64,000 nucleotides of DNA from Escherichia coli (GTDB taxonomy: Bacteria; Pseudomonadota; Gammaproteobacteria; Enterobacterales; Enterobacteriaceae). The translations under genes and the position numbers were made by a program. Positions 3,131-24,484 of this stretch are shown piece by piece (position 1 is the stretch's first letter; each line of letters starts with the position of its first letter). Location: the NCBI RefSeq assembly GCF_017348835.2, contig NZ_CP071375.1; one strand, written 5' to 3'. Under the pieces are notes generated by a model. The model had not been told where the DNA came from. It worked only from the letters and a program-made list of their open reading frames with translations, and searched no databases.

Positions 3131-3797
<667 letters not shown>

Positions 3798-4027
3798 TCA
3801 CGAAAATCCAGTACCAGGCTATTGTAACGTGTTTTTCGACTTCTTTTACGGGAATATCAGTAAACACAATCGCGATCGCGAAATTAATTCACAACAATTC
3901 AAGGGCTTCATTTTTTTGGAAGTCGCCTCGCAGAAGGCACAGATCGCGTAGTGAAAGCACTTGCATTGCCTCATAGCTCTTTTACCATTAGTTATTAATA
4001 CGCCGTTAAGCAACTCAGGACTCTATT

Positions 4028-18649: not shown

Positions 18650-18800
18650 TAATTTAGTGAGTAAGGGTAAGGGAGGATGACTCCTCCCCTGAGACTGACT
18701 GTTAATAAGCTGGGAAACTTATGAGTAACAGTACAATCAGTATGATGACAAATCGCATCATAACCCTTCTCCTTTAAGCCCTCGCTTCGGTGAGGGCTTT
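18650..18800 (+). ncRNA. sibC: SibC antitoxin sRNA (boundaries approximate)
   Basis: Antisense to ibsC, ends in hairpin gccctcgcttcggtgagggc at 18778-18797; position between ygfA and serA as remembered for sibC. Confidence 0.55.
18702..18761 (-). CDS. ibsC: type I toxin IbsC (19 aa hydrophobic peptide)
   Basis: Reverse strand atg atg cga ttt gtc atc ata ctg att gta ctg tta ctc ata agt ttc cca gct tat taa = MMRFVIILIVLLLISFPAY; below the ORF-track size cutoff. Confidence 0.8.
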   Translation of the reverse strand: MMRFVIILIVLLLISFPAY

Positions 18801-21192: not shown

Positions 21193-22089
21193 TCAGACCC
21201 CGTTGGCAAGCCGCGTGGTTAACTCATCCATAAAATATCGCGCAATGGCAGGCATCCCCTTTCGCCCCGCAAATAAAGCATACAACGGTCTGGGTATGCC
21301 GCTCCACGGTGCAAACAGGCGCACCAGTTCACCGTTCACAAGCCCCTGTTTACAGGCAAATTGAGGCAATAACGCCACGCCATTCCCACCAAGTACTGCC
21401 TGCAGCATGACGCGAAGGTTATTTGACTGCAAACGCGCCTCAGGCTGCAGCGTAATCTCCTGTTCGCCATTAATTAATTGCCACTGGCTCCCGCCATTGT
21501 TCGCCAGCCGAAGGATCCCGTCGACGTGGTTAAGATCTTCAATAGCTTTCACCTGCGGATGGCGGGCCAGCCACTGAGAACTGGCAACTAAAATATCAGC
21601 CTGGGTATGTAATTTTTTATAATGCAGCGTCGAGTCCGCAAGCGCGCCGGAAGCCGTAACCAGCGCAATATCAATGCCTTCAGCGACCATATCCACCGGG
21701 CGATTAATTGCCAGCAGTTGCACCTTCGCCAGGGGCCAACGGGCGATAAACTCACTGACAAACTCACCAAACCATGTTTCAGCCATAAATACCGGCGCGC
21801 TGACGCGCAGCATTCCCTGTGGGCTTTCCTGGGCGGCCATCACCACCGCTCTAGCCCGTTCCTCCTGCGCCATCAGCGCCCGACATTCGACAGCAAACTG
21901 TTCGCCTGCCGCCGTCAGGGCCAGACGCCGCGTAGTTCGCTGAATAAGCCGTACGCCAAGGCGCTCCTCCAGTGCAGCCATTCGTCGGCTTAATACCGAT
22001 TTCGACACGCCCGCACGCAGCGCCGCCTGACTGTAGCTGCCTTCATCGGCAATCAGGGCAAAGTAGTAATAATCATTCCAGTCGATCAT
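21193..22089 (-). CDS. LysR-family transcriptional regulator, intact (K-12 carries only a fragment annotated yqfE at this site, as far as I recall)
   Basis: 298 aa; N-terminal HTH ([35 protein letters not shown]) plus substrate-binding domain; divergent from the next gene. Confidence 0.8.
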
Positions 22090-22120
22090 GATTGTTCTAT
22101 TTTCACAACAATGAAGTTCA

Positions 22121-22136
22121 ATTATGTCTATTTAAT
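22121..22136. promoter_or_regulatory. candidate LTTR box attatgtctatttaat (ATTA-N8-TAAT dyad) in divergent promoter
   Basis: Dyad with T-N11-A architecture within the 100-bp gap between the LysR gene and the azoreductase-like gene. Confidence 0.3.
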
Positions 22137-22189
22137 CATCATGTCAACAACAGTTAAACTTCTCTCATCGCAGAAACGAGAGCAAGCCC

Positions 22190-22819
22190 ATGAAAATTCT
22201 CCATATCGACAGTAGCCCAATGCTTAAGCATTCAAGTTCGCGGAAATTAAGCCAGGCGCTGGTAGAAGCGCTTTGCCAACACTTTCCTCAAGCCACAATT
22301 ATTCATCGCGACGTTGGCCTGACGCCGCCGCCCCATTTGCGTGAAGAAACCTTTCTGGCGCTTTGCGGTAAAGAAGAGTGCAAGAACGCACAAATTCAGC
22401 AGGAGGTGAATGATATCCACGCCGCTATTGATGAACTGGCATCGTGCGATGTGCTCATTATTGGCGCGCCGATGATTAATCACAGCGTTTCATCTGGCCT
22501 CAAAACCTGGATAGATCAGGTGTGTCAGGCTGGTTTAACGTTTCGTTTTAGCTCTGCAGGCGCCGTTGGGTTACTGAAGGATAAACCGACGTTTATTGTC
22601 TCGACGCGCGGCGGTATCTATTGCGATGAAGCACATCTGGCGCTGGATCATCAGGAAAGTTATCTGCAAGCCACGCTGAAATTAATGGGCATTACCAATA
22701 CACATATTTTACGTGCAGAAGGTGTCGACAAAACCCAACCGGGACGCGAACTCGCCGAGCAAAATGCATTAGCGCAAATCCCTGATCTTATTACACAAGT
22801 ATTTAATCATTACGTTTAA
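22190..22819 (+). CDS. FMN-dependent NADH azoreductase / flavodoxin-like quinone reductase family protein
   Basis: 209 aa; same architecture as AzoR (MKILHIDSSP...DVLIIGAPMINHSVSSGLKTWIDQV...TFRFSSAGAVGLL...STRGGIY). Confidence 0.7.
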   Translation: MKILHIDSSPMLKHSSSRKLSQALVEALCQHFPQATIIHRDVGLTPPPHLREETFLALCGKEECKNAQIQQEVNDIHAAIDELASCDVLIIGAPMINHSVSSGLKTWIDQVCQAGLTFRFSSAGAVGLLKDKPTFIVSTRGGIYCDEAHLALDHQESYLQATLKLMGITNTHILRAEGVDKTQPGRELAEQNALAQIPDLITQVFNHYV

Positions 22820-22835
22820 TATAAAAGGAGTTATT

Positions 22836-23096
22836 ATGTCTATTAAGCAAAATTTATTTACCGCGTTATTTCTTTGCACTCTCACAGGACATGCATTTGC
22901 AGCAACCGAGATACACAAACCGGACAATAATCTTGAACAGTTATCAAAAGTGAGCATGTCTACACACAATAGCAACCCAGCGGGCGTTGAAAGCCAAATC
23001 AAAGAGAAAGCGGAAGAGTTACAAGCCAGCAATTACTACATCAGTTCTTTCTCCGGTAAAAATTATATCCACGCTACTGTGATTTTCTATAAATAA
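22836..23096 (+). CDS. small secreted DUF1471 (BhsA/McbA/YdgH-like) protein
   Basis: 86 aa, signal peptide ending HAFA, C-terminal ...IHATVIFYK typical of the family; GGAG Shine-Dalgarno-like sequence 8 nt upstream. Confidence 0.6.
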   Translation: MSIKQNLFTALFLCTLTGHAFAATEIHKPDNNLEQLSKVSMSTHNSNPAGVESQIKEKAEELQASNYYISSFSGKNYIHATVIFYK

Positions 23097-23158
23097 TCAC
23101 TCTATTTAATGGGAGCATGGAACTGTTCTATGCTCCGCTGCCAAAATGAAATAAAAAA

Positions 23159-24484
23159 ATGAAAAAAGCTAATCTTACAGGTACGTTGGTTTGCTTTGTC
23201 GCATGTATTATTTTTTTGTCATCCGGCGATATTTTTCGTGAAAAGCCAATCGCGCTAATATGGTTCATTCGACAAAACACACTCTTTTTTACGGGAACCC
23301 TTGCGTGGTGTCTGATGACGCTGACGATGTGCTTATCGTTGCGTTCATCATGGCTTAACAAGATGCTGGGCGGTCTGGATAAAGCATGGCGATTACATAA
23401 GTGGGCAGGAATATGCGCCATCGTTTTTTCTTTCGCCCACTGGCTGGATGAAAAATTACCCCAGTTATTTGTCGCCTTTGGCTGGCTTACTCACCCTGGT
23501 AAAATTGTTGATATTAACCTGACGCCAGTACAAGAAAATTGGCTTCATGTGGGACTGTTAGCGGGTGAATGTGCAATGTTTATTATGATAGCGATGGTTT
23601 GCGTGTCTCTTAGCAAAAGAGTTCCCTATCATTTATTTCATCTTGTTCACCGTTTGTTCCCTGTCTTTTATCTGGCAATTGCCTTTCATGTGTTTACTGC
23701 TTTGTTTAAATCATATTGGTGGGAAACTCCTGCTGCGTATTTATTAATTTTAATTACTATTCCGGGCGTCTTTGTGGCTTTCATTTCGCTGCTGAAGTTA
23801 AACGGTAATAAAAGCAAGCATCAGGCCACCGTTAAAAGCATTGTTAACCATCCGGGACAAATTACCGAAGTCATACTGGAGATGGAACATCCCATCGACT
23901 ATTGTCCGGGGCAGTTTGCATTCTTAACTTTCGCACACAGTAAAGAATCTCACCCTTTTACTATCGCTTCATATGTAAAAGAGAAGAACACGTTGCGCTT
24001 TGCCATCAAAAATTTAGGGGATTATACCTCGACTCTGGCATCCTCGATACAAATCGGCCAGTCCGCCCTCGTTGAAGGGCCATGGGGAAAGTTTGATTTT
24101 ACTCTCCCTTGCTCCCGCCAGGTCTGGATAGCAGGAGGCATCGGCATTACCCCTTTTATCGCCCAGCTTGAGTATCTGAACCAGCATGGCGCGTCCCCTG
24201 TTTCTGTGGATCTCTGGTATTGCATCAGCCGAAGCGAGGATGCATGGTATGTTGATAAACTTACCTCACTTTGTGCCCAGGCCAGTGTCACACTGCATCT
24301 GCTTGATGCGCATAAAGGTGAGCGCCTACAGTCGCACTATCTTACTGATAAAATAGCAAATAAAGGTGACACCCATTTCTGGTTTTGCGGCCCACAGAGT
24401 TTTGCCAAAGCGCTCAGCAAAGGGTTATATGAAAATGGGATTGCCAGCCAAAACTTCCATTACGACCGCTTTTGTATGCGTTAA
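23159..24484 (+). CDS. NOX/ferric-reductase-type flavocytochrome (6-TM bis-heme domain fused to FAD/NAD(P)H-binding domain)
   Basis: 441 aa; His80/His94 and His164/His177 with 14/13 spacing in TM helices, HPFT FAD motif, [11 protein letters not shown](P)H motif, C-terminal FCGP. Confidence 0.7.

Follow-up and report, generated by a model that had tools for sequence, protein, structure and literature searches.

In the Escherichia coli window studied here (the whole stretch of 64,000 nucleotides that was analyzed), a LysR-family regulator gene is separated from an azoreductase-like gene by a gap of 100 bp that is probably a compact LysR-type divergent control region. In this reading, to which we assign a probability of roughly 0.7, the regulator would bind a dyad and a promoter-proximal block in the gap, and the gap would thereby couple the regulator to the adjacent redox genes. 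We favor a divergent LysR-type region because the synteny of the two genes is conserved, conservation within the gap lies far above that at synonymous sites, and the layout matches the LysR paradigm. Literature searches found no paper on the regulator or its operator, which would belong to a known kind, the ordinary LysR-type divergent region.

The locus comprises four genes (Table 1), and the gap at 22090-22189 measures exactly 100 bp between the start of the LysR gene on the minus strand (22089) and that of the azoreductase-like gene on the plus strand (22190), as the original prediction had stated. The gene order on the E. coli chromosome is serA, rpiA, the four-gene insert, argP, and scpA, and of 5426 complete E. 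coli genomes, 232 have the whole insert (21193-24484). A K-12-like genome retains no more between rpiA and argP than a 231-bp piece from the 3′ end of the LysR gene, presumably the pseudogene known as yqfE, and in an O157:H7 genome no gene is annotated at the insert site between rpiA and argP. Literature searches on yqfE, on a LysR regulator beside azoR, and on the operator pattern returned nothing on this locus. Separately, in the identical record of strain PE164 (NZ_CP114128.1), an Ibs-family type I toxin is annotated at window positions ~18702-18761 (603-662 of its locus, L005), located between serA and the 5-formyltetrahydrofolate cyclo-ligase gene and bearing no relation to the LysR gap.

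The product of 21193-22089 carries both of the parts by which an LTTR is recognized, an N-terminal LysR-type HTH (Pfam HTH_1, residues 4-63, 7e-20) and a C-terminal substrate-binding domain (LysR_substrate, residues 88-294, 1e-32). It scored under every NCBIfam equivalog cut-off, and the sources give it generic names only. Its nearest solved chains were 3szp/3t1b (6.7e-36) and 3hhg (3.8e-28), labeled as LysR-family regulators in the table of matches; we take the first two to be AphB of Vibrio cholerae, which would make it the closest solved full-length LysR-type regulator by sequence, and 3hhg to be CrgA. The azoreductase-like protein was nearest to chain 4c0w, FMN-dependent NADH-azoreductase 1 (1e-30), and the gene is annotated in strain PE164 as an FMN-dependent NADH-azoreductase. 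The DUF1471 protein showed NCBIfam similarity to BhsA and YhcN, below cut-off. Finally, the NOX-like protein had the Pfam domains Ferric_reduct, FAD_binding_8, and NAD_binding_1, and its nearest solved chain was 8qq7 (6e-28), labeled as a FAD-binding FR-type domain protein, which we take to be the S. pneumoniae NOX (NADPH oxidase) of PMC11031084. An E. coli NOX candidate, 'EcNOX', has been listed from strain KTE10 (UniProt L2VL28; PMC5676040). Because the gaps between the azoreductase-like, DUF1471, and NOX-like genes are short (16 and 62 bp), no plus-strand terminator was predicted between the three, and they frequently co-occur, they presumably form one operon.

We next considered orthologous loci. 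The regulator orthologues formed a sharply bounded group, with at least 51% identity followed by a drop to 38% or less. Using the LysR protein as query, four loci were recovered from genome contigs (three other Escherichia species and Pseudocitrobacter), and further loci came from Salmonella, Citrobacter portucalensis, and six other lineages, one of which (P0019/L038) was left out since it has a truncated regulator with no usable upstream region. A DNA-pattern scan of metagenomes gave 20 matches, comprising 11 near-identical Escherichia/Citrobacter copies and nine chance matches, and was useful for polymorphism analysis only. The LysR gene lay head-to-head with the azoreductase-like gene or with a remnant of its operon at all the orthologous loci recovered, which come from Escherichia, Salmonella, Citrobacter, Pseudocitrobacter, and five further lineages. 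The flanks varied, comprising rpiA/argP, DUF554 with an ornithine-decarboxylase-like gene, fimbrial genes, an RHS toxin, or a porin, and the gap was ~98-102 bp wide at all loci with an intact azoreductase-like gene. The divergent arrangement that marks an LTTR region was present in the orthologous loci and in distant homologues alike.

Operon content differed among these loci. Citrobacter and two further loci (L010 and L014) had the azoreductase-like gene only, of the three, and another (L013) was without the DUF1471 gene. At the Pseudocitrobacter locus (L003, positions 3566-4000) and at L011 (positions 3779-4000), the azoreductase-like gene was not called, and from reading the sequence it appears lost or disrupted; the promoter region was retained at both, and the downstream DUF1471 and NOX-like genes were also still present. 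L011 has a start-proximal azoreductase-like remnant with a stop codon, as read by eye.

Conservation within the gap was assessed in an alignment of 10 independent lineages, the LysR proteins of which are 56-73% identical to that of the E. coli window. Across the 70 positions from 22091 to 22160 there were no indels, and 34 of the 70 were invariant in the 10 lineages. As a neutral yardstick, we used codons of invariant residues among the first 100 LysR codons, at which two of 47 synonymous third positions and none of 17 fourfold sites were invariant. Additionally, a further set, made up of 14 Escherichia copies of which 10 are distinct, had 10 polymorphic sites within 22091-22160, and all of these fell outside the invariant columns (Fisher p = 0.001). 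By these comparisons, purifying selection on the segment is strong and the spacing is held constant. The 7-mer TCTATTT is present twice as an exact direct repeat (22096-22102 and 22127-22133, 31 bp apart), with one copy in each conserved block; it was only partly conserved in other lineages.

Table 1. Genes of the locus, proposed regulatory elements, and position-by-position conservation of the gap, in window coordinates.
Feature	Position	Strand	Remark
LysR-family regulator gene, 298 aa	21193-22089	-	HTH_1 and LysR_substrate domains
Azoreductase-like FMN-dependent NADH:quinone oxidoreductase gene, 209 aa	22190-22819	+	Pfam Flavodoxin_2, 3e-41
Small DUF1471 (YdgH/BhsA/McbA-like) gene	22836-23096	+	Pfam PF07338, 1.8e-9
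NOX-like gene, 441 aa	23159-24484	+	Ferric-reductase-like TM and FAD/NAD-binding parts (Pfam)
Extended dyad ATTGTT-N10-AACAAT	22091-22112	.	Sole perfect 6-bp-arm dyad in gap
Proposed recognition-site core GTTCT-N6-ACAAC	22094-22109		Inside extended dyad; centre ~-65.5 from predicted operon start
Second conserved block GT.C..T......TATTTAA...	22116-22138	.	Proposed promoter-proximal (ABS-like) zone
-10-like CATAAT	22121-22126	-	LysR gene's own promoter, weaker call; coincides with left arm of 16-mer
-35-like TAATCA	22133-22138	+	Predicted operon promoter, weak (3/6); cross-lineage promoter scan
-10 hexamer TAAACT (consensus TAnACT)	22155-22160	+	Predicted operon promoter
Inverted repeat CTCTC-N11-GAGAG	22162-22182	+	Between -10 and start codon
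Gap columns, ATTGTTCT	22091-22098		Invariant, 10 lineages
Gap columns, 7 bp	22099-22105		Variable
Gap columns, CAACA	22106-22110		Invariant
Gap columns, TGA	22112-22114		Invariant
Gap columns, GT	22116-22117		Invariant
Gap columns, C and T	22119, 22122		Invariant
Gap columns, 5 bp	22123-22127		Variable
Gap column, C	22128		9/10 lineages
Gap columns, TATTTAA	22129-22135		Invariant
Gap columns, C and A	22137, 22138		9/10 lineages each
Gap columns, 10 bp	22139-22148		Variable; 22140 and 22141 partly kept (8/10)
Gap columns, AAC	22149-22151		Invariant
Gap columns, TTA	22154-22156		Invariant
Gap columns, AC	22158-22159		9/10 lineages
Gap column, T	22160		Invariant
Leader	22161 onward		Sequence and length both variable

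The best candidate recognition site in the gap, judged from these sequences, is the core GTTCT-N6-ACAAC. The extended dyad around it was found independently by a repeat finder (as inverted repeat I1) and lies 1-23 nt upstream of the LysR start codon. The invariance of the 8-mer ATTGTTCT and of CAACA in all 10 lineages, while the 7-bp spacer between them varies, is the pattern expected of a dyad recognized by a protein; some dyad with 6-bp arms arose in 33% of gap shuffles, so that the dyad on its own is non-significant in the window. Its half-site centres are 11 bp apart, matching the distance of one helical turn that separates the recognition helices when two LysR DNA-binding domains pair, as described for CrgA (PMC2724274). 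Symmetric T/A pairs occur in the core as T-N10-A (22096/22107) and T-N12-A (22095/22108), with no centred T-N11-A, and the invariant T-N11-A pairs of the gap (22095/22107, 22096/22108, 22098/22110, and 22122/22134) are off-centre or have no conserved arms. On the protein side, recognition-helix residues S29, K30, S31, S34, and R35 were invariant in the regulator orthologues, and the DNA-binding domain was 54% identical to those of distant homologues, compared with 36-38% for the whole protein. A search of the 64-kb window for ATTGTT-N10-AACAAT with up to two mismatches gave 11 matches, versus 3.7 ± 1.9 in shuffles, and only that at 22091-22112 was exact.

A second line of evidence came from beta-, gamma-, and alphaproteobacteria, in which eight distant homologues with 34-38% identity were compared. 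The Aquitalea and Pseudomonas sp. S25 copies are divergent from a Flavodoxin_2 gene, the Cupriavidus copy from an isochorismatase gene, and those of Bosea, Rhizobium, Sphingobium, Chimaeribacter, and P. aeruginosa, which are plasmid or chromid copies, from SDR genes. Aeromonas, Proteus, and Photobacterium were left out, given that their records have no annotation and their start codons are uncertain. In each of the nine promoters (the window and the eight others), the best intergenic match to GTTC-N8-GAAC, a pattern defined after the first distant loci had been seen, lay 4-14 nt away from the start codon of the regulator gene and scored 6-8 of 8, with four perfect matches. Shuffle P values were ≤0.002 in four promoters and 0.025-0.044 in three, including the window, where GTTCTATTTTCACAAC matched 7 of 8 (P = 0.025), while the two 6-of-8 matches were individually non-significant (P 0.35-0.42). 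Across the sequences compared, a dyad adjoining the regulator start codon is common to the whole regulator clade. In the three alphaproteobacterial loci L042, L044, and L045, the left half-site was also seen by eye to recur (as CATCGTTCT or CAGCGTTCT) ~31-40 nt past the core, possibly as their second binding site. GACTA occurs 20-24 nt past the core in the same three loci, as well as in Pseudomonas sp. S25.

In the case of the promoters, a standard sigma-70 scan of the gap gave no promoter at threshold, and our calls come from a relaxed cross-lineage scan used in its place. TAnACT fell in the same columns of the alignment in all 10 lineages; its T, A, and last T were invariant, A22158 and C22159 were kept in nine of 10, and the third position was free. 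Judged by eye, the homologue promoters of Pseudomonas and Aquitalea have a counterpart of the weak -35-like hexamer, TAATCA or TAGTCA, in the corresponding position. The distance between the clade-wide dyad and a -10-like hexamer was also fixed: in each of the six beta- and gammaproteobacterial lineages TAnnnT followed the dyad core by 44-45 nt, and it was absent at the expected distance from three alphaproteobacterial promoters. With the -10 hexamer where it is, transcription of the azoreductase operon is predicted to start near 22167, which puts the dyad centre at -65.5. Block 3 (TATTTAAT) was considered as the operon -10 and rejected, because every reading of it misses a key -10 base (the second-position A or the closing T), and also because TAnACT is invariant at both bases and at a fixed distance from the dyad.

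The second conserved block, whose invariant bases are G22116, T22117, C22119, T22122, and 22129-22135, would extend from about -51 to -29 relative to the predicted start, with its centre near -39; no symmetric dyad within it was conserved across the 10 lineages. In the LysR paradigm, a T-N11-A recognition site is joined by an activation site near -35, with a footprint of 50-60 bp (PMC2724274), and divergent promoters may overlap at LysR-type regions (PMC5002191). Measured from the predicted start, the window has a candidate recognition site near -65 and a second conserved site near -35, the two blocks together spanning 48 bp. For the LysR gene itself, a minus-strand -10-like hexamer starting at 22126 or 22125 was present in 10 of 10 lineages, with a partner -35-like TTGTTG (minus strand, 22150-22145) at an 18-bp spacer; the TT of this -35-like hexamer could correspond to the invariant A22149 and A22150. 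The evidence for this promoter is the weaker, because the stretch is AT-rich and variable.

Downstream of the operon -10, the right arm of the CTCTC-N11-GAGAG repeat overlaps the purine-rich ribosome-binding stretch. Comparable repeats of 5-7 bp with differing sequences were present in eight of nine lineages (individual z-scores -0.4 to -3.3), and in several of these the right arm again lay over the purine-rich ribosome-binding stretch. Acting as RNA, the repeat would mask the ribosome-binding site. The left arm is upstream of the start predicted from the -10, which means that the predicted start is misplaced or that the repeat does not belong to the RNA; it makes sense as RNA only if transcription begins further upstream than ~22167.

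The original prediction had located a candidate LysR-type box elsewhere in the gap, at the 16-mer attatgtctatttaat (22121-22136), read as a T-N11-A dyad and taken as support for LysR control of the three adjacent genes. The string is there, as ATTA (22121-22124)-N8-TAAT (22133-22136), and contains two T-N11-A pairs (22122/22134 and 22123/22135), but neither its occurrence nor its left arm sets it apart. With an A+T content of 65%, the gap has 15 T-N11-A pairs (9.5 ± 2.2 in shuffles), so T-N11-A alone, particularly when chosen by eye in such AT-rich DNA, is uninformative. Perfect dyads with 4-bp arms and 5-9 bp spacers numbered four in the gap, against a mean of 2.35 per dinucleotide-preserving shuffle, at least one being present in 86% of shuffles. 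In the alignment, as read by eye, ATTA-N8-TAAT was fully intact in two of 10 lineages (the window and L014); A22124 was kept in three and T22123 in six, and three Escherichia polymorphic sites (22121, 22123, and 22124) hit the left arm. Another T-N11-A dyad, TTCA-N6-TGAA (22102-22115), intact in Pseudocitrobacter, was rejected in that its left arm is unconserved in other lineages.

That this 16-mer is nonetheless the regulator's primary recognition dyad is improbable. The right half, within TATTTAA (22129-22135), and T22122 were invariant in 10 of 10 lineages, and therefore the pair T22122...A22134 is itself conserved; moreover, the crgA-mdaB intergenic region has two T-N11-A sites, of which the 16-mer could be a counterpart of one. 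Set against this are the chance expectation and variable left arm described above, and the distant homologues, which do not retain ATTA-N8-TAAT and keep the GTTC-N8-GAAC-like dyad instead. The regulator's main binding dyad is most likely ~25 bp to the left of the 16-mer. Since the dyad at 22094-22109 sits near -65 of the predicted promoter, the 16-mer falls in the promoter-proximal zone and more likely marks that zone, overlapping the operon -35 region and the -10-like hexamer of the LysR gene. The proposed control of the adjacent genes by the LysR protein has good comparative support, with the box most likely having been misassigned.

Two further readings dispense with LysR binding at the dyad or throughout the gap. 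The conserved blocks might be core promoter elements or be bound by a different factor, for example a global regulator of redox or iron responses, with the LysR protein not controlling the operon. TAnACT does behave as a -10 element, 10 positions of the 19-bp Fur consensus are matched by eye at 22125-22143, and one gene of the operon is ferric-reductase-like. A 10/19 match in AT-rich DNA is weak, however, and by eye no CRP, FNR, or marbox-type pattern was seen in the conserved columns; we rejected the Fur, CRP, FNR, and marbox readings of the blocks as weak or unconserved. The dyad tracks the LysR clade and not the target, being found beside homologues paired with Flavodoxin_2, isochorismatase, or SDR genes, and the invariant 8-mer abuts the regulator start codon, a point to which no core promoter of the operon could plausibly extend. 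We regard this alternative as quite improbable. Still less credence goes to the idea that ATTGTT...AACAAT acts in the LysR mRNA, as a leader hairpin before the AUG that controls translation or stability. The dyad comes shortly before the start codon, a LysR promoter at 22121-22150 would place it within the transcript, and no good Shine-Dalgarno sequence for the LysR gene was visible on direct reading of the sequence. Yet the arms were invariant with no compensatory change (where the right arm was AACAGT, the left was still ATTGTT), which suggests base-specific recognition rather than pairing, and distant homologues keep GTTC/GAAC half-sites with 11-bp centres, the geometry of a LysR DNA-binding domain pair; a search of 21950-22350 against Rfam gave no family match. 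The conserved 8-mer beside the start codon could have a role in translation of the LysR mRNA as well.

Returning to a LysR-type divergent control region as the preferred reading, we infer regulator binding, operon activation, and self-repression from the sequence comparisons as follows. The LysR protein would bind as a multimer, with one pair of DNA-binding domains on GTTCT-N6-ACAAC, at about -65, and a second pair on the block at 22116-22138, at about -39, overlapping the weak -35. When an inducer is present, for which a quinone or an electrophile is plausible, the protein would switch on transcription of the azoreductase-like, DUF1471, and NOX-like genes. Bound in this way, it would also cover the -10-like hexamer of the LysR gene and the early transcribed region of that gene, leading to autorepression, which the location of the dyad at ~+13 from the predicted LysR start would suit.

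The closest described analogue is crgA-mdaB, in that both systems pair a LysR-type regulator with a divergent gene for a flavodoxin-fold quinone reductase. CrgA of N. meningitidis is a LysR-type autorepressor and activator, divergent from mdaB, which encodes a flavodoxin-like-fold NAD(P)H quinone reductase, and the crgA-mdaB intergenic region holds two adjacent T-N11-A-containing sites near the target -35 (PMC2724274). The window target is of the kind expected in a CrgA/MdaB-type module, with its Flavodoxin_2 domain and FMN-dependent NADH-azoreductases as nearest chains. However, it is AzoR-type and not MdaB, DUF1471 and NOX-like genes follow it, and the operator sequence differs from that of CrgA; the regulator itself is not a CrgA orthologue, having family-level similarity only. 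AphB, for all its proximity by sequence, shares neither target nor gene context with the window regulator.

In terms of layout, ilvY-ilvC and metR-metE of E. coli/Salmonella have overlapping divergent promoters with two tandem inverted-repeat operators, and IlvY O1 is at +17, downstream of the regulator's own start, while the other operator overlaps core promoter elements (PMC5002191). The predicted layout of the window is akin to these, with interdigitated promoters and a dyad just downstream of the predicted LysR start, although IlvY and MetR belong to other regulator clades with other operator sequences and effectors, and the starts in the window are predicted ones. AzoR (Smlt3089) of Stenotrophomonas maltophilia is a LysR-type regulator with an azoreductase-derived name and a link to redox or drug stress (PMC12189255), and may be related to the window regulator.

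On its own, the gap is a routine LysR-type promoter, and the value of the finding is practical. It provides a precise candidate operator (22094-22109) and a promoter model for an unstudied regulator, and it places the NOX-like enzyme of an accessory redox island, carried by 232 of the 5426 complete E. coli genomes, under this regulator's putative control. The clade-wide dyad could, in addition, help predict the targets of many related LysR regulators. A wider reading, which we hold to be possible and on balance somewhat doubtful, is that the regulator and its GTTC-N8-GAAC-type operator represent a widespread LysR clade devoted to small cytoplasmic oxidoreductases (azoreductase-like, SDR, and isochorismatase-like), which in a minority of E. 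coli switches on an accessory redox module. If true, that module, a NOX-like membrane flavocytochrome among its parts, would be an inducible system for exporting electrons or generating reactive oxygen, and of it K-12-like strains keep only the 231-bp fragment of the regulator.
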